Source: Sulfurimonadaceae bacterium
GTDB lineage: Bacteria; Campylobacterota; Campylobacteria; Campylobacterales; Sulfurimonadaceae
Reading direction: 5' to 3'
DNA: 26,601 nt
Assembly: GCA_041548245.1 (NCBI GenBank)
Contig: JBFESZ010000021.1
Location: 1-26,601 of the forward strand
This document shows positions 10,527-22,636 of this stretch, one piece after another (the first letter of the stretch is position 1; each line of letters opens with the position of its first letter). The position numbers were made by a program, and so were the translations under genes. Under the pieces are notes generated by a model that did no database searches, was not told where the DNA came from, and was given only the letters and a program-made list of their open reading frames with translations.

Positions 10527-13500
10527 TTAAGCCTTTTCAATCTTACGATTACGTGAAGCCACAAGAATCAATACGAAGATAATCGCGTACGTCCATGGAA
10601 CAAAGTCAGGCACAGGAATAGGGTCTCCCTTAGCATATGAATGCATACCTGCAAGATAGTAGTTAACACCGAAATAGGTCATCACAATCGATGAAAAGAC
10701 CAGTAGGGAAACAGTTGCAAAGATGAATGGTGTGTATATCGCCTTAATAAATCTTAAATGAATCACAACAGCATATAGTAAGATACTGACCAGGGCCCAT
10801 GTCTCTTTCGGGTCCCATCCCCAATAACGTCCCCATGACTCGTTCGCCCAGACTCCGCCAAGAAAGTTACCTACAGTAAGAAGCACAAGACCGACGATAA
10901 GGCTCATCTCATTAATCGCATTCAACTCCAAGATGGAAAGGTTGATACGTCCTTCATTTTTCTTGCTTCTAAGCGCAAACAGGATTAAAACGATAAATCC
11001 AAGCAAGGCACCTAAAGCAAGAAAACCATAACTCGCCGTAATCATTGATACATGAATAGACAACCAATATGACTGCAGAACCGGTACAAGGTTCGTCACT
11101 TGAGGATCGAGCCAGTTTAGATGCGCTACAAAGAGTATAAGGCCAGAGAGTACACCTGTAGCAGCAAGTGTGATTGCAGAGTTGCGTGAGAAGATGAATC
11201 CGGCAAGAACGGTTGCCCATGCGATGTAGATCATAGATTCATAACCGTTAGACCAGGGAGCATGTCCTGAAATATACCAGCGGATAATAAGCCCGATCGT
11301 ATGGAAGACAAACAGAACAATCAAAATAAGCATCGCCGACTTTGAAAACCATTGCAGTTTGAACTTCGGTTGGATAATCTTAACAAAACTCAACACCAGT
11401 AAAACAAGTCCCATAACCAGATAAAATGGCATTAACTGTTCAAAGATGTTGTATTTGTTATAAAAAATCTCGGCTGTTATCTTTTGCTCAGTTGGATAGA
11501 CCTCTGCTCCATATCTTTTCTGATATTCAGCGATCTTGGCTATTCCTTTGTCTGCACTGCTCCAATCACCTGTTTTTAACGATGATTCAACCCCTGTAAA
11601 GTACGCGACAGCAGCTTCACGTACCTTCAGGCTATCCTCCGGGCTAAAGGTCTGTAGAGCTTCAATCGTAGCAAACCATTTGTTGTTTTCATGGTTAGGT
11701 TTGGCAAACAGTTTAAAAATAGATCCTGTAAAGACCATATAAACGATATTAAAACGCTCATCAACTTGTAAAACAGCCTTGTCGAACTTATTACGTTCAG
11801 CTGGTGCCTTCTGGGCAGCAAGCTCAACAAACTCTTGAAGCTTATATCCCTGAAGCGTGTCAGGCGACTCCAGAAATTGGGAAAAAGAGGCATACTTGCT
11901 TTTAGGATCATTACCCAAGATCTTATTGATCTCTTCGTGCTTAGTCTTGATAAGATTGATCTCACGCCACGCATCGGGACGGACCATCATCCCAAGTACC
12001 ATCTGATCTGCACTCATACCTGCGATACGACCCCCATGCACCTTGTTTACGATCTCCGTATTAAGTGTGTTCAAGGGTTTCATACGACCGGAACTGTCTT
12101 GAGTTATGAGTTTACCAAAGTTCGCTGCATGTTCTTTGTCAAAGGATGTGATAGTCTTGACAAGTTCATTAACGCCTTCTTCAGCCCTAACCTCATTCGA
12201 GATGCCAAGAAGCAGTGAAAATGCCAATAAGACACTAGCTATGCCATCACGCTTGGCAGCATATTCACGACCCTTTTTAACAAGCTTTCTAAAACGTCCA
12301 TTAGGCATGAAAAAAGAGGCAAACATACCGATAGCCAACATCGTATAACCTATATATGTCGGTAGCGTCCCAGGATCGTTGTTCACTGAAAGAATCGTTC
12401 CCTGCTCATCCCTATCAAAAGAGGATTGAAAAAACCTAAAGTTTCGATGATCAAGTATATGATTCATATAGATTCTGTATGGCATATTGACCCCTTCTTC
12501 CTTGTCAATCAAAACCACTTCACTCGCATACGAAGCTGGACTCATCGAACCAGGATAACGCTCAAGCTGAAAATCAACAAGTTTCAAACTAAATGGAAGT
12601 ATTTTGATGATTGCGCCATAAGAAAGTTCGATCTTCATCCCGTCAAACTCTGCCAACTTTTCAAAGCCAATAGCACCTGAGCTTCCAACAAGTGTCACCT
12701 CTTTACTCTGGCCCTTATAGATCACTTCCATGACAAGTCCGTCTTGAAGACGGTTTCGACTTCCTTTTACCTTCTTGGATACCAGTTTTTCAATCACATG
12801 CGCATTCACTTTGCGCATCACAAAGTTCGTTCCTGCTGTCTGATACAATGTGCGTGTTTTAAGCTCGTTCTTTTCACCTGCTTTTAACGTATTTCCCGAA
12901 CGTGTAGCCATATCCAGTGTATTAAATTCAAAAGAATGTGACATATATAGATGCTCATTCTCAAAACTGATATTGACAATAGGTTTATCAGATTTTACTT
13001 CGGCACCAAAGTTTAAGATAAGATCACTCGCTTCGAAGAATGAGCCCTCTTTCAACTTGATCTGTTCAGGCTGATTGTTCACAGTGATCATAAACTCTAA
13101 AACTGTTTTACCGTTTTCTTTATCTTCGACCAACTCATTGACAGCATTGGGAATGTACTCTTTAAGACGCAATCTAACCGTCTCTCCTTGAACATCAATC
13201 TCTTCGTCCAAGTGGTTTTCACTCAACTCCGAAAGAAGCACAACCTTTTTGTACTCATGTTTTGTATTGTCTTTCTCAAAAATAGCACGAACATAGGTCT
13301 CGCGAGATGTGATACGATTTTCAATCTCACCTTCGCGAATATGCATACTTCCTTCATAGCCGACAAAACGTGTAATGATCGCACCCAGCAAGATGACCAG
13401 AAACGAACCATGGAACAGAACAATATTCCATTTTTTCTGGTTAAACATGGAGTGTCTGATCATCGATGTCAATAGATTTAGCGCCAAAACTCCCAAAAGT

Positions 13501-13661
13501 ACTTCAAACCAGCGAGCACTGTAGACCTCTGCCTGCGCAGTCTGTGTACTAAAGTCACTCTCAATAAAAGTCGCGATACCGACCGCAAATGCAAAAACAG
13601 TCAATAAAATAGCCGTCAATCGCATCGAAGACAAAAAATTAAATACTTGTTTCATATTCAT
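10527..13661 (-). CDS. ccsA: Cytochrome c biogenesis system II heme lyase, CcsBA (ResB-ResC) fusion
   Basis: N-terminal ResB region (ATFIE, FHGSF, GYEGSMHIREG, IYMNHILDH..FRFFQSS) and C-terminal CcsA region (GHAPWSNGYES, WLSIHV, the WWD motif WANESWGRYWGWDPKETW, GMHSYA). Confidence 0.95.
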   Translation of the reverse strand: MNMKQVFNFLSSMRLTAILLTVFAFAVGIATFIESDFSTQTAQAEVYSARWFEVLLGVLALNLLTSMIRHSMFNQKKWNIVLFHGSFLVILLGAIITRFVGYEGSMHIREGEIENRITSRETYVRAIFEKDNTKHEYKKVVLLSELSENHLDEEIDVQGETVRLRLKEYIPNAVNELVEDKENGKTVLEFMITVNNQPEQIKLKEGSFFEASDLILNFGAEVKSDKPIVNISFENEHLYMSHSFEFNTLDMATRSGNTLKAGEKNELKTRTLYQTAGTNFVMRKVNAHVIEKLVSKKVKGSRNRLQDGLVMEVIYKGQSKEVTLVGSSGAIGFEKLAEFDGMKIELSYGAIIKILPFSLKLVDFQLERYPGSMSPASYASEVVLIDKEEGVNMPYRIYMNHILDHRNFRFFQSSFDRDEQGTILSVNNDPGTLPTYIGYTMLAIGMFASFFMPNGRFRKLVKKGREYAAKRDGIASVLLAFSLLLGISNEVRAEEGVNELVKTITSFDKEHAANFGKLITQDSSGRMKPLNTLNTEIVNKVHGGRIAGMSADQMVLGMMVRPDAWREINLIKTKHEEINKILGNDPKSKYASFSQFLESPDTLQGYKLQEFVELAAQKAPAERNKFDKAVLQVDERFNIVYMVFTGSIFKLFAKPNHENNKWFATIEALQTFSPEDSLKVREAAVAYFTGVESSLKTGDWSSADKGIAKIAEYQKRYGAEVYPTEQKITAEIFYNKYNIFEQLMPFYLVMGLVLLVLSFVKIIQPKFKLQWFSKSAMLILIVLFVFHTIGLIIRWYISGHAPWSNGYESMIYIAWATVLAGFIFSRNSAITLAATGVLSGLILFVAHLNWLDPQVTNLVPVLQSYWLSIHVSMITASYGFLALGALLGFIVLILFALRSKKNEGRINLSILELNAINEMSLIVGLVLLTVGNFLGGVWANESWGRYWGWDPKETWALVSILLYAVVIHLRFIKAIYTPFIFATVSLLVFSSIVMTYFGVNYYLAGMHSYAKGDPIPVPDFVPWTYAIIFVLILVASRNRKIEKA

Positions 13662-13753: not shown

Positions 13754-16456
13754 TTACTTTAGTTCACTCCAATTCTTTCCTATGTTGACCGAAGAACGTA
13801 GTGGAACATTGAGCGTATATATACCTTCCATGATCGTTTTGAACCTCTCAGCCAGAACTTCTGCTTCATCTTCGTTCACTTCGAAGATCAACTCATCATG
13901 TATCTGCAGTAACATTCTTGCATGTAGATGTTCCTTTTTTATCACATCGGAGATCTTATTCATGGAAAGCTTGATAAGATCCGCTGCCGAGCCCTGAAAG
14001 ACAGTGTTAACGGACTCCCTTTCATAGGCAGCCTTCATCATAGGAGGTGCACTTTCAAAATTAAAATAACGGCGACGGCCAAGAAGTGTCTCCACATAGC
14101 CCACCTCTTTCGCCTTGTCCGCTACACTGCGTAAAAATGTCTTTATGGTTGGAAACTTCTCAAAATAGGCCTCGATGATCTCTTTAGCCTCTTTCGTACT
14201 TACACCGACATCAACTGAAAGTTTTTTCGGACCCATCCCGTATAAAAGCCCGAAGTTGACAATCTTCGCGATATTTCGCTTGCTGTCTGCTTCTTCTTCT
14301 CCAAAGATAGCAGCAGCTGTTTGACGGTGAATGTCTTTATCGTGTGCAAAGGCATCTAACAAGGTCGGGTCCTGTGAGAAGTGTGCTAGAAGACGCAGTT
14401 CAATCTGTGAATAATCGATCCCGACAAGCATCTTTCCTTCAGAAGCGACAAAGGCCTGACGTATCTTCGCACCCATTGGCGAGCGTACCGGAATATTTTG
14501 AAGGTTCGGGTTCTTTGAGCTTAGACGTCCGGTCGCTGTTCCCGTCTGCAAGAAAGAGGTATGCACCCGTCTATCCTCATTCTCAAGTCCCAAAGTCAAG
14601 AGCGGATCGATATAGGTGGAATAGAGCTTGAAGACCTCCCTGTACTCTAAAAGAGCTGGAATGATCTCATGGGTGTCATACAGGCCGTTAAGAACTTTTT
14701 CATCGGTAGAGTAACCGGTTTTTGTCTTCTTGCCGGCAGGAAGACCCAAGGTCTCAAACAGAACGACACCAAGTTGCTTCGTCGAGTTGATGTTAAACTC
14801 ACCGCCTGCAAGTGCGTAGATCTTTCGACGTAGTTCGTCCAAAAGCACTTCTGTCTCTGCCTTAAAGTTTTGCAAGAAGTCGGTATCGACTTTGATACCT
14901 TCCTCTTCCATCTCAATCAGTGTCTGAATAAAAGGAAATTCGACCTCTTTAGCCTCTCCAATCAAGTGCTCAGCACCTTGAAGCTTTAATTGTTCAAGAA
15001 GCTTATGATAGAGTTTATACGTTATCAAAGCATCTTCTGCAGCATAATCAGCCGCCTCTTCCAAAGCGACAGAAGCAAAGTTCTCGCCTTTTTTGACTGT
15101 ATCTTTAAAAGCGATCATTGTATGATTGAAGTAGAGCGTAGAGAGTTTATCCAGGCCGACGGGTTTTTCAGAGTTGACTAACCAGGCCAAAAGCATGGTA
15201 TCAGCATAGGGCTTATACGCTTTTAGGCCAAGATACGGGCAGATGAACTTCAGATCAAACTTCAGATTGTGACCAATGACCTTGAAATCCAGTAGCTCTC
15301 TCAACGCTCTAACACCGATTTCTTTTGATATCTGATCACCTACACCCAGATAGACATGGGCCAAAGGGATGTAATACCCCCTGTTCTGTTCAAAAGAAAA
15401 ACTGAACCCAACCAATGAGTCTTGGCTAGAGTCTAGACCCGTTGTCTCCGTATCAAGGGCTACAACACTCTCTTTAGGAATACTTTTGATCACATTAAAA
15501 AGCTTCTCTTCATCATCAAGAAGAGTATATTCAAATACTTCTTGTGGTGCTTCGGTTTTCTCTTCTATTTTTGAAGGTTGAATTTCAGCGATCATTCCTT
15601 TTGCCTTAAGTTGCCTAAGGATTCCGTTGAGCTCATATTTATGCAGATCATCGACAATGCCCAAAAACGGGTTCTCATAAGTCAGGATGAAACGTGAAAA
15701 ATCAAGTTCTTCAAAAACATTGTCCACTAAAGTAACAAGCTTTTGTGATCGCCAAGCATCCTCTTCATATGTCTTTAACTTGTTTTGCACACCGGCAGGT
15801 TTAACCTCATCAATATGATCATAAATACCCTGAAGTGTATCAAACTCATTGAGAAGTTTTTGTGCCGTCACTTTTCCCACCCCTTTGACACCAGGAACAT
15901 TATCGGCACTGTCACCCAGGAGGGACTGATAGTCTGTAAACTGATCCGGACGGATCCCGTACTTTGCAATACATGCTGCTTCATCAATATCTTTACGCTT
16001 GATCGCGTCGACCACTATGACCTTTCCGTCATCAATCATCTGATAGAGGTCTTTGTCGTGAGAAACGATACGGACATTCATTCCCTGCGCTGTTGCAAGT
16101 CTGGTAACCGATGCGATCATATCATCGGCTTCATATCCCTCTTTGCAGATGGTGGCAAACCCCATTTTCTCCACCCACTCCACGGCAATCGGAAGCTGTG
16201 CCATCAACTCTTCAGGGGGAGAGGGACGATGCGCCTTATACTCCGGATCGATCTCATTTCTAAAGGTAGGTCCTTTCATGTCCAACGCAAAGACGATATA
16301 GTCTGTGTTATGCTCTTTTTCAATACTGGCAATAAAATTGGTAAATCCTGTCAAAAGCCCCGTAGGAAAGCCCTCTTTGTTTTTTAATGGGGGTAGCGCA
16401 TAAAAACTGCGAAAAAGAAATCCAAAAGTATCTATGATAGTGATCGTTTTAGCCAA
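13754..16456 (-). CDS. polA: DNA polymerase I
   Basis: 5'-3' exonuclease motifs (YKAHR, EADD, DKD, GDSADNVPGV), 3'-5' exonuclease motifs (DTETTG, HNLKFD, YAAED) and polymerase motifs A/B/C (DYSQIELR, KIVNFGLLYG, QIHDEL). TTG start with an AAGGA SD. Confidence 0.98.
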   Translation of the reverse strand: MAKTITIIDTFGFLFRSFYALPPLKNKEGFPTGLLTGFTNFIASIEKEHNTDYIVFALDMKGPTFRNEIDPEYKAHRPSPPEELMAQLPIAVEWVEKMGFATICKEGYEADDMIASVTRLATAQGMNVRIVSHDKDLYQMIDDGKVIVVDAIKRKDIDEAACIAKYGIRPDQFTDYQSLLGDSADNVPGVKGVGKVTAQKLLNEFDTLQGIYDHIDEVKPAGVQNKLKTYEEDAWRSQKLVTLVDNVFEELDFSRFILTYENPFLGIVDDLHKYELNGILRQLKAKGMIAEIQPSKIEEKTEAPQEVFEYTLLDDEEKLFNVIKSIPKESVVALDTETTGLDSSQDSLVGFSFSFEQNRGYYIPLAHVYLGVGDQISKEIGVRALRELLDFKVIGHNLKFDLKFICPYLGLKAYKPYADTMLLAWLVNSEKPVGLDKLSTLYFNHTMIAFKDTVKKGENFASVALEEAADYAAEDALITYKLYHKLLEQLKLQGAEHLIGEAKEVEFPFIQTLIEMEEEGIKVDTDFLQNFKAETEVLLDELRRKIYALAGGEFNINSTKQLGVVLFETLGLPAGKKTKTGYSTDEKVLNGLYDTHEIIPALLEYREVFKLYSTYIDPLLTLGLENEDRRVHTSFLQTGTATGRLSSKNPNLQNIPVRSPMGAKIRQAFVASEGKMLVGIDYSQIELRLLAHFSQDPTLLDAFAHDKDIHRQTAAAIFGEEEADSKRNIAKIVNFGLLYGMGPKKLSVDVGVSTKEAKEIIEAYFEKFPTIKTFLRSVADKAKEVGYVETLLGRRRYFNFESAPPMMKAAYERESVNTVFQGSAADLIKLSMNKISDVIKKEHLHARMLLQIHDELIFEVNEDEAEVLAERFKTIMEGIYTLNVPLRSSVNIGKNWSELK

Positions 16457-16529
16457 GGGAAAAATCCTTCAAAAAATTTTCTTAGTATAGTTATTCAAGC
16501 CAAAAAGTTTGATGAAATAGCGTTTAGAT

Positions 16530-16535
16530 TATAAT
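16530..16535 (+). promoter_or_regulatory. -10 box 7 nt before ATG 16543 (candidate leaderless)
   Basis: TATAAT-TACACCA-ATG, no SD. Confidence 0.55.
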
Positions 16536-16542
16536 TACACCA

Positions 16543-17046
16543 ATGAAATCACTAAAATATCTTAATCGCTATACTCCTGAAACCCAAAATAAGGTACATG
16601 AGCTTATTGAAAAACAGCAGCTCTCTGCGTATATCTTGAGTAAATATCCCAAAGCACACGACATAAAAACGGACAAAGCACTTTTTAGCTACGTCATGGA
16701 GCTTAAAGAGAATTATATGAAGAAGTCTGCTCCACTGAGTAAAGTTATCTATGACGGAAAGATTCATGTCATTCATAATGCTTTGGGCACCCATCGTTTT
16801 GTCTCCAGAGTACAGGGAGGTAAACTCAAAGCAAAAAACGAGATTCGGATTGCCTCCATGTTTAAAAGTGTCCCTGAATCATTCTTGTCGATGATCGTCG
16901 TGCACGAACTGGCTCACTTCAAAGAGAAAGAGCACAACAAGGCATTTTACAAACTGTGCGAATACATGGAACCCTCCTATCATCAACTCGAATTTGACCT
17001 AAGACTCTATCTGACACACATCGACCTCTTGGGAAAATTATATTAA
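16543..17046 (+). CDS. ygjP: YgjP-like (DUF45, M48-type HExxH) metal-dependent hydrolase, possible UTP pyrophosphatase
   Basis: Motifs SRVQGGKLKAK, IVVHELAH.KEKEHNKAFY.LC and MEP.YHQLEFD closely match E. coli YgjP as recalled. Confidence 0.88.
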   Translation: MKSLKYLNRYTPETQNKVHELIEKQQLSAYILSKYPKAHDIKTDKALFSYVMELKENYMKKSAPLSKVIYDGKIHVIHNALGTHRFVSRVQGGKLKAKNEIRIASMFKSVPESFLSMIVVHELAHFKEKEHNKAFYKLCEYMEPSYHQLEFDLRLYLTHIDLLGKLY

Positions 17047-17086
17047 CCCTCTTGTATTTACTTGAGCTAGCCTCAACATTTCCGGT

Positions 17087-17092
17087 TATAAT
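17087..17092 (+). promoter_or_regulatory. -10 box 6 nt before ATG 17099 (candidate leaderless)
   Basis: GGTTATAAT-TGTTCT-ATG, no SD. Confidence 0.55.
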
Positions 17093-17098
17093 TGTTCT

Positions 17099-17620
17099 AT
17101 GAAACTATCCAAACTCTTTTTCTTGTTACTGATTTTGCTGAATGTTGCCCAGAGCAATGAACTGCATGATGACGTCATCAAAAGCAATGAAGACTTACAT
17201 GAGCTCTTTTTGACGGCCTACATCCTCTCCTTTCATTGGACAAAAAACGACAGTACTGGTGAGAAGTATAACGATACACACAAAGCCTATGGCCTTGAAT
17301 ATATCCGCGACAATGAATATTCACTTTCATATAATCATTTTATTAATTCAAGAGGAAGAAAAGTAGACGTATACGGAGCTGGATACCTTTTTGATTTTGA
17401 TAAGCAACCGTTCGGATTGCATTTGGTCGGAGGCTATCAGGAAGGATATTGTTTCAACGGTCTTTTAAACTCTGTAGAATGTACCCAAAGTAGTGATGAC
17501 AGCAGTGCCTTCATCCTGCCCATGCTTTACTATAAACATCCATTTTTTAAAGTAGATCTTTTCAGCAATGGCAATATGATTGCATTTCGCTTCAATATAA
17601 AAATATACGATCTGTTTTAG
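17099..17620 (+). CDS. Secreted small beta-barrel outer-membrane protein, PagP-like (putative)
   Basis: Signal peptide, alternating aromatic-rich beta strands and a C-terminal Phe. The H...YN...G.E...F.NS...G.GY pattern resembles PagP. Confidence 0.55.
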   Translation: MKLSKLFFLLLILLNVAQSNELHDDVIKSNEDLHELFLTAYILSFHWTKNDSTGEKYNDTHKAYGLEYIRDNEYSLSYNHFINSRGRKVDVYGAGYLFDFDKQPFGLHLVGGYQEGYCFNGLLNSVECTQSSDDSSAFILPMLYYKHPFFKVDLFSNGNMIAFRFNIKIYDLF

Positions 17621-17634
17621 CCCCCTGCTAAACT

Positions 17635-17643
17635 TGCTATAAT
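17635..17643 (+). promoter_or_regulatory. Extended -10 box 7 nt before ATG 17651 (candidate leaderless)
   Basis: TGCTATAAT-TGCGTCC-ATG, no SD. Confidence 0.6.
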
Positions 17644-17650
17644 TGCGTCC

Positions 17651-18904
17651 ATGAACAACTATGATGAGAAATTCAACACCGCAATAAAATCTACCTATTT
17701 TTATAAACTCAAACCCGAGCAGAAAGACTTCATCAGGGAAAAGGCCTATGCTCATCGATTTTCCTTTCAACAGCTACGCCTCATCATCGAGATGGCTAAT
17801 GACCTTGAGATGTGGGATGAAAGCAATATCATAGATCTTTGGCCTGAGCATACCCATGCGAAAGTGATCTTGCAGCGTCTTACCAAAAGCTATGAAGCAC
17901 TTAAAAACAAGCCAAACTCATACAAAGGTTTTAATCCAAGTGTCTTACGTTCAGAACAGAAATTCAAATTTGTCACACAGGAGAAAGAGGGCTTTGGTCT
18001 AGGGATGTGTCCAGTCGCTTCAGAAGAGACACGTTGCTGCAATCTCATGACTCTTGACGCGGTCGAGAGCTGCGGATTTGACTGTTCCTACTGCACCATA
18101 CAGTCTTTTTACAAACAAGACAAAATCACCTTTGATTCCGGCTTTAAAGAGAAACTTGCAAAACTCCAACTTGACCCTAACCGTACCTACCACATAGGGA
18201 CAGGACAATCTTCTGACTCTTTGATGTGGGGAAACAAAGAAGGTGTACTCGACGCTCTTTTTGATTTTGCCCGCCGTAATCCGAATGTGATCTTGGAGTT
18301 CAAGACAAAATCAGACAATATCAAGTACTTTCTTGAGAATGATGTCCCGAGGAATATCATCTGCACATGGTCTCTAAACACCCCTGTTATCATCGAAAAT
18401 GAAGAGCATTTGGCCGCTTCACTGGAAAAACGTATAGGCTCGGCACGTGCCCTGGCCGACAAAGGTGTCATCGTTGGTTTTCACTTCCATCCTATCGTCG
18501 AATACGAGAACTACTTAAATGACTATAAAGCAGTCTATGACGAGCTGATAAACAGATTCAAACCGGAGGAAGTTGCATTGGTCTCTATGGGAACATTGAC
18601 CTTTATTAAACCTGTCATCCAGAAGCTTCGTCAACGAAACTTCAAATCAAAGATCTTGCAGATGCCTTTTGATGATGCAGCAGGAAAAGCCTCCTATCCT
18701 GTCTCTATTAAAGAAGAGATGTTCAAACATGCCTACGAAAGCTTTAAACTCTGGCATAGGAAAGTCTTTTTCTATCTCTGTATGGAGGACCACTCATTAT
18801 GGAAAAAATGTTTCGGATATGAGTACTTCAGCAATATGGACCTAGAGAGAGCAATGGTTTCAAGCTATTGTGAGAAAACGGGGATGGAATATATCTACTC
18901 TTAA
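17651..18904 (+). CDS. Radical SAM protein, spore photoproduct lyase (SplB)-like family
   Basis: CxxxCxxC motif (CGFDCSYC) plus SPL-family motifs SSDSL, FKTKS, WSLN, E...ASLEKRI..A, GF.FHPI and YLCME. Confidence 0.85.
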   Translation: MNNYDEKFNTAIKSTYFYKLKPEQKDFIREKAYAHRFSFQQLRLIIEMANDLEMWDESNIIDLWPEHTHAKVILQRLTKSYEALKNKPNSYKGFNPSVLRSEQKFKFVTQEKEGFGLGMCPVASEETRCCNLMTLDAVESCGFDCSYCTIQSFYKQDKITFDSGFKEKLAKLQLDPNRTYHIGTGQSSDSLMWGNKEGVLDALFDFARRNPNVILEFKTKSDNIKYFLENDVPRNIICTWSLNTPVIIENEEHLAASLEKRIGSARALADKGVIVGFHFHPIVEYENYLNDYKAVYDELINRFKPEEVALVSMGTLTFIKPVIQKLRQRNFKSKILQMPFDDAAGKASYPVSIKEEMFKHAYESFKLWHRKVFFYLCMEDHSLWKKCFGYEYFSNMDLERAMVSSYCEKTGMEYIYS

Positions 18905-18927
18905 AATCCTAAAAGGAAAAAAACCTT

Positions 18928-19755
18928 TTAGTAGTCAGACACAACACCCAGCTGATCCATCACGTTATCGATGATGTCTTCGAGCATCTCGTGATCATAC
19001 CCGGCATCAGCAGCTTTGCGCAGACCGAAGGTAATGGACTGTTCAGAAAACGGTGCATTGACAGGAACGACTGTTTTTACGATATTAAGCGCTGTCGCGT
19101 ACTCTTTGATCTCTTCAGGAGCTTTCTGATAAGTATCAGAAAAACGGATCATCTCAACAAAGGTCTCATCAAACTTCCAGTGCTCAAAAATAGCAGCTGT
19201 CACTGTTGCCGTTGTCTCTTCAACATAAGAAAACTCGACTTGAGGAATATTGTTCGTCGTCTCTATCTCAGACTTGAAATTGAACAACAGGTCCTCTTTG
19301 ATGATATCTGAAGCGATGATGATTTTACCCGTCTCTTGAAGAAAAGAGGCCAGGAAAAGGTTCTCCATCTTTTTTCTATCGATCTTTGAATACCAGTTAT
19401 GCATCAATACGGCCTGCTGATTAGAGATTTCAGCAAACTTTTCTGATGTGATACCGTAAGGCTCCATATCAACATTCAACAGTTTGCGTACAGAGTTCCC
19501 TATCGCAATTGAACGTGTCATACTCATACCAAAAAGAGAAACAGCCTGAGCAACACTTTTAATCTCTTTGCCAAAACAGTATAAAGGCGAATTTGCTGCC
19601 TTTAAAAGGTTGGCAACGATCATAGGATCTTTGTCGACAACATTGACTAGATCGTTAATACCAGCATCCGGATCAGCACAAACTTGCTGTAATTCAACAA
19701 TAGTCTTGGGTAAGGCTGGCAGAGATTTGATACTTTCTACGAGAGATGTCTTCAT
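18928..19755 (-). CDS. Stand-alone HDOD domain protein
   Basis: Motifs LPALP, DPMIVANLLKAANSPLY, IKSVAQAVSLFG, LFLASFLQETGK and W.F. Confidence 0.9.
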   Translation of the reverse strand: MKTSLVESIKSLPALPKTIVELQQVCADPDAGINDLVNVVDKDPMIVANLLKAANSPLYCFGKEIKSVAQAVSLFGMSMTRSIAIGNSVRKLLNVDMEPYGITSEKFAEISNQQAVLMHNWYSKIDRKKMENLFLASFLQETGKIIIASDIIKEDLLFNFKSEIETTNNIPQVEFSYVEETTATVTAAIFEHWKFDETFVEMIRFSDTYQKAPEEIKEYATALNIVKTVVPVNAPFSEQSITFGLRKAADAGYDHEMLEDIIDNVMDQLGVVSDY

Positions 19756-19801
19756 CTATTTAACACCTATATATATTAATTTCATTTTTATTATTGTACC
19801 A

Positions 19802-22636
19802 CTACTTTTTTATATCTAACTGATTAGTGTGCAGTGCCAGCTCTTTTTCTAAGAACTGACCAGTATACGAACCCGTCTCTTTATGATATTGAGCCAACTC
19901 CTCAGGTGAACCTACACCGACCACCCGTCCGCCTTTTGCTCCGCCTTCAGGCCCCATATCGATGATATAGTCAGCATTCTTTATCATATCCAGGTTATGC
20001 TCGATCACCAAAACAGAATTTCCCAACTCCACAAAATGATGTAAGACATCTGTCAGACGATTGACATCATCAAAATGCAGACCTGTCGTCGGTTCATCCA
20101 GAATATACAAGGTTTTACCCGTGTCTTTACGGCTCAGCTCTTTAGAGAGCTTTATACGCTGGGCTTCTCCGCCTGAAAGTGTGACGGCGTTTTGGCCAAG
20201 GTTTATATACCCCAGACCGACATCATGCAGGGTCTGAAGTTTTGCTTTTATTTTGGGAATAGGTGCAAAGAATTCCAAGGCCTCTGTCACACTCATGTTC
20301 AATACATCAGAGATCGACTTGCCCTTGTATAATATCTCCAGAGATTGTGGATTGTAACGCTGGCCATGACATGAATCACATTTGACCATGATATCGGGCA
20401 AAAAGTGCATCTCAATCTTGATCTCACCCTCACCCTGACACTTCTCACAACGCCCACCTTTTACATTAAAACTGAAACGTGAAGCAGTATAGCCTCGTAT
20501 CTGAGCTTCTTTTGTCTTGGCAAAAAGATTACGCAGTTCATCCATCACTCCGGTATAAGTTGCCGGATTCGAGCGCGGTGTCCTACCGATCGGACTTTGA
20601 TCCAAAAAGATAACCTTGTCAAGTTTTTCAAGTCCCTCAATCTCAACACCTTTGACTTTTTTTACCTTGCGCGCATGATTAAGCAGCTCTCGTGCAACCG
20701 GTAGAAGAGTCTGAAGAATAAGTGATGACTTTCCGCTTCCGCTTACTCCACTGACACAGACAAAGTTATTCAAAGGCAACTTGACCGATACATCTTGAAT
20801 ATTATTGATCGTGACATTTTTAATCTCAATCCACTCCTCTTGCGGACGGCGGTAAAAATATTCTATCTGTTTTCGGCCATACAGGTAATCAGCCGTCAAG
20901 GTCTTTGCCTTGCTCATCTGCTTACGTGTTCCTGCAAAAACGACCTCTCCTCCATATTTTCCTGCCCCCGGACCGATATCAATGATATAGTCAGCATTTT
21001 CTATGGTCTCCTTGTCATGTTCAACAACGATAACAGTATTGCCTTTCTCCTGCAAAGAACGCAGGGTTCGAATAAGCTTCAAGGTGTCTCTTTCATGCAA
21101 ACCGATACTCGGCTCATCCAGCACATACATCACACCCGTCAGTCCGCTTCCGATCTGCGAAGCGATACGAATCCGCTGAGCTTCACCTCCACTGATTGAG
21201 CGTGCATCGCGTGAAAGAGAGAGGTAACCCAGTCCTACATCATACAAAAAGAAGAGCCTCTCTTTGATCTCATTCAAGATAGGCTCACCGATCATTTTTA
21301 TCTGTGCAGAGAAGTGATTGAAGTTTTTTTCGTCACTGAAAAAAGTATAAGTATCCTCAATAGGCATGCGTATCAGTTCAGATATTTTTTTGCCGCTGAC
21401 ATCAACGGCAAGGCTCTCTTTTCGAAGACGGTTACCATCACATTTTGAGCAGACCTTCTCACTCATATAGTCCTGCAGCTCTTTTTCATCTTTGAACATA
21501 TCATAGGCTATTTTGGTGATGCCTGGCCAGATACGCTTAATCGGATGCCCTTTCCATTCAAACTCTATCTCGTCAATGCTGCCATGAAGAATTGCCTTCT
21601 TCTGATACTCTTCAAGCTCTGAGAAGGACTTACTTATAGAGATTTTCTCATGGGCGCAAAAACCTTTGAGAAATGTGAAATAGTACCCCTTGTTAAACCC
21701 GTAAACAATCTTTACAGCACCTTTTTCAATACTCAGGTCAGGATCTATGATTTTATCCGTATCCAAAGCATAACGGATACCAAGACCATCACACTCCGTA
21801 CAAGCCCCCTTAGGCGAGTTAAAAGAGAAAGAGAGAGGCTCAAGCGGCTCAAAACTCACCTTACAATCGTGGCAGGCCAGATGCTCACTGTAATGAACAA
21901 CCTTCTCATCAAAACCCATCTCTTCATGGTTTAAAACCTCTATCTCAAGTTCACCGTAGGACTCTTTAAGAGCTTTTTCAACATCTTGAGCAATACGTTC
22001 TTTATTGTCTTCTTTAATGACAATACGGTCAATCACGACCTTAATGGTATGCTTCTTTGTTTTTGAAAGTTCAATCTCTTCATCCAGACGCACCATCACA
22101 CCGTCAATCATAGCCCGGACATAACCTTTAGCCGATAATGAAGCCAGCAAATCGGAAAATGTGCCTTTTTTCTCACGAATCAAAGGGGCCAAAATAATGA
22201 CTTTTGATCCTACTGGAAGTTTAGCTACCTGTTCGATGATATCTGAAGCGTTCATCTGTGAGATAGGTTTTGAACAGATATGACAATGCTGCACACCCAC
22301 ACGAGCGAATAGAAGACGAAGATAATCATAAATCTCTGTGATCGTCCCTACCGTAGAACGAGGGTTTTTTGAAGTCGTCTTCTGATCGATCGCAATGGCT
22401 GGAGTCAGACCTTCTATCTTGTCGACTTCAGGCTTGCCTATCTTATCCAAGAACTGACGTGCATATGAAGATAGTGATTCTATATAGCGTCGTTGTCCCT
22501 CTGCATACAAGGTATCAAACGCCAACGTCGACTTTCCACTTCCGCTCAGTCCTGTACAGACGACAAGTTTGTTTTTTGGAATTTCCAAAGAGACATTTTT
22601 AAGGTTGTTTTCACGTGCACCTGTAATTTTTATCAT
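19802..22636 (-). CDS. uvrA: Excinuclease ABC subunit A
   Basis: Motifs GARENNLK, GLSGSGKSTL, EGQRRY, two xSGGEAQR signatures, GVSGSGKS, zinc-finger CxxC pairs, and DEPSIGLH/DEPTTGLH. Confidence 0.99.
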   Translation of the reverse strand: MIKITGARENNLKNVSLEIPKNKLVVCTGLSGSGKSTLAFDTLYAEGQRRYIESLSSYARQFLDKIGKPEVDKIEGLTPAIAIDQKTTSKNPRSTVGTITEIYDYLRLLFARVGVQHCHICSKPISQMNASDIIEQVAKLPVGSKVIILAPLIREKKGTFSDLLASLSAKGYVRAMIDGVMVRLDEEIELSKTKKHTIKVVIDRIVIKEDNKERIAQDVEKALKESYGELEIEVLNHEEMGFDEKVVHYSEHLACHDCKVSFEPLEPLSFSFNSPKGACTECDGLGIRYALDTDKIIDPDLSIEKGAVKIVYGFNKGYYFTFLKGFCAHEKISISKSFSELEEYQKKAILHGSIDEIEFEWKGHPIKRIWPGITKIAYDMFKDEKELQDYMSEKVCSKCDGNRLRKESLAVDVSGKKISELIRMPIEDTYTFFSDEKNFNHFSAQIKMIGEPILNEIKERLFFLYDVGLGYLSLSRDARSISGGEAQRIRIASQIGSGLTGVMYVLDEPSIGLHERDTLKLIRTLRSLQEKGNTVIVVEHDKETIENADYIIDIGPGAGKYGGEVVFAGTRKQMSKAKTLTADYLYGRKQIEYFYRRPQEEWIEIKNVTINNIQDVSVKLPLNNFVCVSGVSGSGKSSLILQTLLPVARELLNHARKVKKVKGVEIEGLEKLDKVIFLDQSPIGRTPRSNPATYTGVMDELRNLFAKTKEAQIRGYTASRFSFNVKGGRCEKCQGEGEIKIEMHFLPDIMVKCDSCHGQRYNPQSLEILYKGKSISDVLNMSVTEALEFFAPIPKIKAKLQTLHDVGLGYINLGQNAVTLSGGEAQRIKLSKELSRKDTGKTLYILDEPTTGLHFDDVNRLTDVLHHFVELGNSVLVIEHNLDMIKNADYIIDMGPEGGAKGGRVVGVGSPEELAQYHKETGSYTGQFLEKELALHTNQLDIKK

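Follow-up and report, generated by a model that had tools for sequence, protein, structure and literature searches.

The DNA window analysed here (the whole 26,601-nucleotide stretch of contig JBFESZ010000021.1, GenBank assembly GCA_041548245.1, from a Sulfurimonadaceae bacterium) encodes on its forward strand a 417-residue radical S-adenosylmethionine (SAM) protein (17651..18904) whose predicted model clearly has the fold of spore photoproduct (SP) lyase, here called the SPL fold. The protein is a relative of SP lyase but is not SplB. Its conserved partner is a dedicated nucleosidase of the MTAN fold, often accompanied by a short-chain dehydrogenase/reductase (SDR), and is not polA or uvrA. 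We tentatively propose that the window protein supplies the radical SAM component of a conserved protein pair, with this dedicated adenine nucleosidase as the other component, and that it acts on a DNA lesion or modification other than SP. The SPL-like gene, present as a single copy in the window genome, was delimited using the list of open reading frames (ORFs), script-checked positions, Pfam and the predicted model. The position script also confirms that the ORF and the features named in a preliminary description of this gene (C141, C145, C148, Thr149, Gln186 and the IGTGQSSD motif) are real.

The assignment to the SPL fold is drawn from family profiles and structural comparison. The Pfam SPL family (PF20903) matches the protein with 40.9 bits against a gathering cut-off of 27 and covers residues 187-334 only. 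The SplB equivalog TIGR04070 gives 55.2 bits over residues 136-307 only and does not reach its threshold of 400, and NCBIfam TIGR03916 (radical SAM linked to UDG) gives 16.4 bits across 46 residues against a cut-off of 343. The sole solved relatives retrieved by sequence search are the Geobacillus SP lyase chains (E 3e-4). An AlphaFold model built from 81 homologues (pLDDT 95.3) has SP lyase as its top Foldseek match, with an E value of 1.7e-14 compared to 2e-5 for the runner-up. The preliminary description had proposed comparing a predicted model with SP lyase structures, and that comparison yields the SPL fold: VIA-align superimposes 270 residues (model 99-378, SPL 53-341) with a Z score of 26.7 and a root-mean-square deviation of 2.6 Å. 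MqnE follows as the VIA runner-up at Z 15.4, a value level with generic radical SAM chains (Z 13-15) in a list that holds no HpnH structure. The features shared with SplB (EC 4.1.99.14; TIGR04070; PDB 4FHC-4FHG, 4K9R and 4RH0) include the partial TIM-barrel radical SAM core and the C-terminal hairpin region, at an overall identity of 17%.

Because the structural match to SP lyase begins at residue 99, residues 1-98 (17651..17944, forward strand) lie outside it. This N-terminal domain is all-helical in the model, with helices at 4-13, 22-35, 39-54, 60-63 and 70-86, unlike the N-terminal domain of SP lyase, which the available part of PMC3467042 describes as alpha/beta. A comparison of residues 1-100 with the protein atlas gave a top score of 0.81, which is at chance level. 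In the fused forms described below (P0121-P0136), the all-helical domain sits between the nucleosidase and the SPL core.

Residue conservation was assessed over 81 family members, comprising 38 near-group and 43 far-group sequences. The radical SAM cluster motif C141-x3-C145-x2-C148 (18071..18094, forward strand; C141 at 18071, C145 at 18083 and C148 at 18092) is invariant in 81/81 and corresponds to CMGHCHYC in SP lyase. A profile of the 81 members aligned with the SP lyase chains of G. thermodenitrificans, in which residue 140 is Ala in 4rh0 (C140A) and Ser in 4fhg (C140S), equates Tyr147 with Tyr96, position 149 with Tyr98 and position 186 with residue 140. Tyr147 (18089..18091), located inside the cluster motif at the Tyr96/97 position of SP lyase, is retained in 80 of the 81 members. 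Thr149 (18095..18097) occupies the Tyr98/99 position, which is S, T or A in the near group and I or F in the far group; Tyr is found there in just 3/43 far-group sequences (3/81 overall). Gln186 (18206-18208), within the IGTGQSSD motif of residues 182-189 (18194..18217), stands at the Cys140/141 position and is Gln in 37/38 near-group and Glu in 37/43 far-group sequences. Since positions 149 and 186 fall opposite Tyr98 and residue 140 in the profile alignment, the manual alignment on which the preliminary description had relied was right. Its statement that the canonical Tyr and Cys are lacking holds with two caveats: Tyr98/99 and the Bacillus-type Cys are absent, but Tyr147 is kept and an invariant Cys120 occupies the clostridial donor site, so that the absence of a catalytic Cys is true only of the Bacillus-type position.

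The residues with which SP lyase contacts its substrate are largely replaced. These contacts were taken from section 14 of PMC3467042 and followed in an alignment read by hand, in which the dihydrothymine-binding residues Arg193 and Glu268 become Thr239 and Gly314 and the phosphate ligand Arg273 becomes Thr317, with Arg retained at the latter position in the far group. The phosphate-bridge ligand Lys309 is retained as Lys346 (18686..18688, forward strand), which is near-invariant and is the lone conserved residue of the four in the same hand-read alignment. Lys346 follows a short hairpin without the WGRYGI tip. In profile alignments, this tip, which contains Arg304/Tyr305 and has a role in lesion flipping according to the part of PMC3467042 available, is a six-residue SP lyase insertion that the window family does not have. 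The TK, WSxN, E-x-x-TAS and R-x-x-AA motifs of SplB are preserved. The earlier view that the protein is not a canonical SP lyase is thus borne out, and the missing SP lyase residues, together with the low TIGR04070 score, suggest that the window enzyme likely has a different substrate or chemistry.

In addition to the SAM cluster, the family carries a C-x8-CC...C set of cysteines that sets it apart from SplB. Cys120 (18008..18010, forward strand), Cys130 and Cys377 (18779..18781, in the FFYLCME motif) are each present in 81/81 members and Cys129 in 77/81. A profile of 38 distant members aligned with 4rh0, a C140A/S76C mutant, places Cys120 onto residue 76 of the Geobacillus enzyme with high posterior, and the Cys129-Cys130 pair (18035..18040) falls in a six-residue insertion ahead of strand beta1. 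A single-sequence alignment of low posterior had put Cys129 or the CC pair at residue 76 and is superseded by this profile alignment. According to PMC3467042, the Geobacillus enzyme has Cys140 as the fourth conserved Cys of SP lyase, and the C. acetobutylicum enzyme has Cys77, at the position of Ser76 in Geobacillus. Two readings of the extra cysteines remain: Cys120 is a candidate H donor at the clostridial position, or the four cysteines may form a second metal or redox site. In one locus (L139:7223-7756), the end of the SPL-like gene shares 8 bp with a thioredoxin-like gene, whose product is a possible redox partner of the conserved cysteines; a second locus (L140:7223-7753) has the same arrangement, its thioredoxin-like label being taken from ORF position only.

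Which gene is the functional partner of the SPL-like gene? Neighbours were counted within the fetched flanks of 180 loci, of which 100 are from Campylobacterota and 80 from metagenomes. A PNP-like gene of approximately 170 codons lies directly upstream of the SPL-like gene in 44 of the 100 Campylobacterota loci, and an SDR gene lies near it in 36. In the metagenome loci, a nucleosidase gene stands beside the SPL-like gene in 6 and an SDR gene in 7. The co-occurrence across genomes is nearly complete. The SPL-like gene is present in 36 of 201 Campylobacteria genomes and a strong PNP-like gene (E <= 1e-21) also in 36; the two sets overlap in 35 genomes, and the 36th genome with an SPL-like gene has a partial nucleosidase copy adjacent to it. 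Among the 165 genomes without the SPL-like gene, a PNP-like gene is found in one only (G065:C1:23576-24097, E 5.9e-67). Both genes are absent together from two genomes of the window's own family. True SP lyase is not known to have a nucleosidase partner, which counts against equating the window protein with that enzyme.

In other phyla, the two proteins also occur in a single chain. Seven representatives at 50% identity, 598-668 residues long, have an N-terminal region ahead of the SPL-like core. Pfam and NCBIfam flag a nucleosidase relative in P0123 only, and the N-terminal parts of five of the seven align with stand-alone nucleosidases. Named members of the fused clusters include Spirochaeta lutea and a Fidelibacterota metagenome-assembled genome (MAG). 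In the window genome, the nucleosidase (G000:C32:141-722) and the SPL-like gene are on different contigs and are neither adjacent nor fused, as is likewise the case in Sulfurimonas genomes; the partner is not visible within the window because it is encoded on another contig. This nucleosidase matches an operonic member with E 1.3e-10 and the family profile with E 9.7e-49, and it shares aligned motifs with the stand-alone proteins and the fused domains. The invariant residues of the nucleosidase are E10, M129-E130 and S154-D155, which we take to be equivalent to E12, M173-E174 and S196-D197 of E. coli MTAN; the titles of matched PDB entries name Glu12Gln and Asp197Asn mutants. A model of the nucleosidase (pLDDT 85.8) retrieves only MTAN and futalosine hydrolase chains among the 48 top matches listed. 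The window genome also carries a canonical PNP_UDP_1 gene (168 bits), and the partner nucleosidase is therefore an additional, dedicated enzyme. A complex prediction for the window protein and the nucleosidase of its own genome, each with an alignment, gave a score of 0.00 and a mark of 0.32 and is no evidence on binding in either direction.

Where the nucleosidase is unlinked, it has neighbours of its own. In the window genome, it begins 2 bp beyond the stop codon of a co-oriented HtrA/DegP-like protease gene (G000:C32:141-2173; L132, L221). In two Sulfurimonas loci (L217:4405-5004 and L218:4203-4742), a fused GH3 (NagZ-like) and Amidase_2 gene follows it after 8-12 bp, with a sodium:solute symporter.

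Genes of DNA repair recur beside the family in several arrangements. The preliminary description had noted that the gene lies between polA (13754..16456) and uvrA (19802..22636, Pfam UvrA domains) and had seen in this a hint of DNA repair. Both genes are on the strand opposite to the SPL-like gene and are not co-transcribed with it. Six genome loci at 82-88% identity (L052-L056 and L059) show, to the limits of their fetched flanks, the order polA / YgjP / orf173 / SPL-like / HDOD / uvrA, and two metagenome loci at 81-86% identity (L194 and L207) show part of it. polA is near the SPL-like gene in 7/180 loci, all of them 81-88% identical relatives, and is thus confined to the window clade. The wider suggestion of a repair context stands, as other repair genes recur beside more distant relatives. 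uvrA is found in 9/180 loci in two arrangements; in the second, seen in 3 loci from a different genus, it is transcribed away from a nucleosidase / SPL-like / SDR operon. One divergent clade of 12 loci (L134-L136, L162, L165, L172, L176, L179, L187, L192, L201 and L210; 9 clusters at 70% identity) has uvrC as its neighbour: the two genes diverge across a gap of 24-174 bp in 11 loci, and the ORF calls overlap in the twelfth, L201. In this clade, holA lies beyond uvrC in 11/12 loci, thyX downstream in 11/12 and a CAT-like gene downstream in 12/12; the latter encodes approximately 310 residues that weakly match 2-oxoacid dehydrogenase acyltransferases at their catalytic end and match nothing in NCBIfam. 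Single loci show a co-directional fpg gene 29 bp upstream (L195), a divergent XPB-like helicase gene (L171) and a Pyr_excise (pyrimidine-dimer glycosylase) gene three genes upstream on the same strand at 1.35 kb (L033). In total, 24 of the 180 loci have one of uvrA, uvrC, fpg, the XPB-like helicase and Pyr_excise. By a rough estimate, which is an inference and not a test, three separate arrangements with nucleotide excision repair genes among some 15-20 lineages are far above chance. Most Campylobacterota loci fell together under single-linkage clustering at 60-70% identity, which is consequently a poor measure of their independence.

On this basis, we favour, with less than firm confidence, a two-protein system that acts on DNA. 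In the proposed mechanism, the [4Fe-4S] cluster at C141/C145/C148 would cleave SAM reductively, and the 5'-deoxyadenosyl radical would attack the substrate in a pocket equivalent to the site of the flipped-out dinucleotide in SP lyase. The substrate radical may be resolved via Cys120, via a second metal or redox site formed by C120/C129/C130/C377, or via both. SAM would probably be consumed and not regenerated, because the enzyme lacks the Tyr98-Cys140 pair through which SP lyase returns the radical. The partner nucleosidase would then strip adenine from the adenosyl product, which may be 5'-deoxyadenosine or an adenosyl-substrate adduct, and in many lineages the SDR would next act on the ribose product. 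DNA is rated the most likely substrate because the two SPL-fold enzymes that have been characterised both have DNA as their substrate, repair genes are recurrent neighbours of the family and Lys309 is kept. The second characterised enzyme is gp53 of phage M6, an SPL-like radical SAM isomerase of thymidine hypermodification that acts on DNA among tailoring enzymes and not in SP repair, according to the portion of PMC8989533 available. Compared by description only, gp53 differs from the window protein in that it is a phage enzyme with kinase and pyridoxal phosphate-enzyme neighbours and no nucleosidase partner reported in that portion of PMC8989533. A candidate substrate is, for example, a radical-induced methylene-bridged intrastrand cross-link; methylene-bridged G-mC cross-links arise in higher yield under anaerobic conditions and are incised by UvrABC, as stated in the accessible part of PMC1976268.

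Several observations weigh against a DNA substrate. The hairpin tip that is thought to wedge into DNA is deleted in the window family, and the protein is near neutral (isoelectric point 6.8; family median 7.7), although charge and isoelectric point are uninformative as a test of DNA binding. None of the five repair genes is present in the fetched flank of 156 of the 180 loci. Moreover, the repair neighbours are all on the opposite strand, except for fpg and Pyr_excise at one locus each, so that co-transcription is not shown, and related loci are not independent, so that the counts overstate the case. The accessory genes are of the type found in small-molecule tailoring: the SDR (36/100 and 7/80 loci), a GT2 domain apparently fused to the N-terminus of the SPL-like protein P0135 (704 residues; a true fusion or a gene-calling artefact), an RNase Z-like metallo-beta-lactamase (MBL) gene upstream on the same strand in 10 loci of one clade, and the CAT-like acyltransferase gene in 12 loci. 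A second, dedicated nucleosidase in addition to the canonical MTAN is also hard to justify for a rare repair event.

These accessory genes fit better with a substrate that is not a nucleic acid, an explanation that we consider unlikely and yet the most serious rival to DNA. Following the logic of HpnH/HpnG or MqnE/MqnB-MTAN, the radical would add to an unsaturated small molecule, the nucleosidase would remove adenine, the SDR would reduce the ribose carbon to a polyol and GT2 would glycosylate the product in some lineages. We take HpnH, HpnG, HpnI and MqnE to be members of such pathways of radical adenosylation and nucleosidase cleavage, in which a radical SAM enzyme is paired with a nucleosidase of the PNP_UDP_1 family, and the SDR and GT2 accessories presumably resemble hopanoid side-chain tailoring. 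The pairing of the window family with its nucleosidase is likewise obligate and includes fusions. The partner, which folds like MTAN, has its best family scores against futalosine hydrolase (42-43 bits), MTAN and HpnG, all far under the cut-offs, and it looks specialised in a genome that also has a canonical MTAN-like gene. The SDR gene stays beside the nucleosidase gene in L219 although the radical SAM gene lies elsewhere, and the GT2::SPL-like fusion P0135 points in the same direction. The loss of the H-donor and SAM-return residues would also suit an enzyme that never makes 5'-deoxyadenosine. Radical adenosylation of a small molecule thus accounts better than the DNA reading for the dedicated nucleosidase, the SDR and GT2. 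It leaves the fold unexplained, however, because that fold belongs to two radical SAM enzymes that act on DNA (Z 26.7 for SP lyase) and not to MqnE, whose Z of 15.4 is at the generic level. Furthermore, repair genes recur beside the family in six arrangements, the equivalent of the phosphate-binding Lys309 is retained, no candidate substrate pathway is conserved beside the SPL-like gene, and the window genome has no SDR orthologue that could be found (top match 27% identity, E 6e-7).

A further reading is that DNA itself is adenosylated. The SPL-fold enzyme would not abstract hydrogen but would add the 5'-deoxyadenosyl radical to a DNA base or lesion, the nucleosidase would remove adenine, and the SDR, joined by GT2 in other phyla, would turn the ribose into a polyol or sugar appendage. 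We regard this scheme as doubtful.

Slightly more doubtful still is the same two-protein chemistry directed at RNA (tRNA or rRNA) or at the modification or salvage of free nucleotides. The SPL-like gene appears vertically inherited and resembles a core gene in three families (9/11, 6/6 and 6/6 genomes), one clade (10 loci) has co-oriented RNase Z-like MBL and HDOD genes upstream, and the Lys that binds the phosphate bridge in SP lyase is kept; these features speak for an RNA- or nucleotide-directed enzyme. On the other hand, the gene is not found in 64/64 and 79/83 genomes of two large families, a pattern that a core RNA modification would not usually show; genes for tRNA or rRNA modification do not recur as neighbours, and the repair genes point to DNA. 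Repair of SP in the dry or cold DNA of non-sporulating cells by a true SP lyase of clostridial type, with Cys120 as its H donor, is very improbable: the SPL fold and the invariant Cys at the residue-76 site (Cys77 in C. acetobutylicum, as given in the part of PMC3467042 available; PDB 4rh0 is a C140A/S76C mutant) agree with it, but TIGR04070 scores 55 against a cut-off of 400, Arg193 and Glu268 are replaced by Thr and Gly, Tyr98 and the hairpin-tip residues Arg304/Tyr305 are absent, the N-terminal domain differs, and close relatives come from sediment and marine metagenomes, where UV is unlikely as a selective force.

The role of SP lyase homologues in non-sporulating organisms has already been raised in print, and the available parts of PMC4929162 and PMC3765255 link such proteins by neighbourhood to DNA repair, with an archaeal group linked to NreA and a bacterial group linked to ImuB-C/DUF4130/UDG. 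These groups resemble the window family in having hosts without spores and DNA-repair neighbourhoods. They differ in that none of those neighbours is seen in the window family and in that neither nucleosidase coupling nor the C-x8-CC...C set is mentioned for them in the accessible parts of PMC4929162 and PMC3765255. A published description of a nucleosidase-coupled SPL-fold family was not found in the literature searched, which leaves subscription journals outside. The obligate nucleosidase partner provides an experimental handle, since its substrate would reveal the fate of SAM. If the preferred DNA reading is true, anaerobes and microaerophiles would possess either a second type of DNA repair by radical SAM enzymes or a new modification of DNA. 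With a small-molecule substrate, the family would define a new radical adenosylation pathway, and either outcome would extend known radical SAM chemistry. DNA adenosylation would make the ribose of SAM a building block in a cellular chemistry of DNA modification or repair, and it would join MqnE and HpnH as a third, structurally unrelated case of radical adenosylation.

The family is widespread. A word-indexed search returned 4104 relatives among 7999 scored candidates, and the database names of these relatives are 'spore photoproduct lyase (family)', 'radical SAM' or 'hypothetical' only. An exhaustive search of 50%-identity representatives found 1510 clusters with E <= 0.001, of which 262 reach E <= 1e-30. 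Contigs of the nearest genomes, at 82-88% identity, are labelled as Sulfurimonadaceae or Sulfurimonas MAGs. In the 201 Campylobacteria genomes, a close orthologue (E <= 1e-129) is present in 28 and a member of the distant group only in 8. The two large families mentioned above have the gene in 0/64 and 4/83 genomes.

The remaining genes around the SPL-like gene are specific to particular clades. Upstream in the window and on the same strand are a YgjP-like metallopeptidase-domain gene (16543..17046, Pfam PF01863) and a 173-residue ORF (orf173, 17099..17620) with a signal-peptide-like start and no family match, which ends 30 bp before the SPL-like gene. The YgjP-like gene is a neighbour in 6 of the 100 related loci, and both it and orf173 are neighbours in the window clade only. 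A scan of 16300-19900 for promoters and terminators gave counts not above those of shuffled sequences (10 compared to 9.0 and 1 compared to 2.8, respectively). Among sequencing runs, three DNA entries from a single study and no RNA entry were listed. Downstream, an HDOD-domain gene (18928..19755, reverse strand) is convergent with the SPL-like gene and 23 bp from its stop. HDOD genes occur beside the SPL-like gene in two arrangements. In the window clade, the gene is convergent at 22-47 bp in most loci, and in another clade (L137, L143, L149, L150 and L157), it is co-oriented, two genes upstream, and is followed by the RNase Z-like MBL gene.

In five Sulfurimonas loci (L033, L034, L035, L079 and L082), the SPL-like gene is immediately preceded by one to three HSP20 genes in the same orientation, at a spacing of 81-89 bp in four loci and 662 bp in L082, a hint of stress-linked expression. 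A role in arsenosugar synthesis, raised by ArsB near the SPL-like gene in two Sulfurimonas loci, was dropped: ArsB is 2-3 genes away in mixed orientation, and ArsS, which comes up in a review of HemN-like proteins, is apparently HemN-like. Elsewhere in the window, a 1044-residue ORF (10527-13661, reverse strand) unites a ResB-like domain with a CcsA-type cytochrome c assembly domain.

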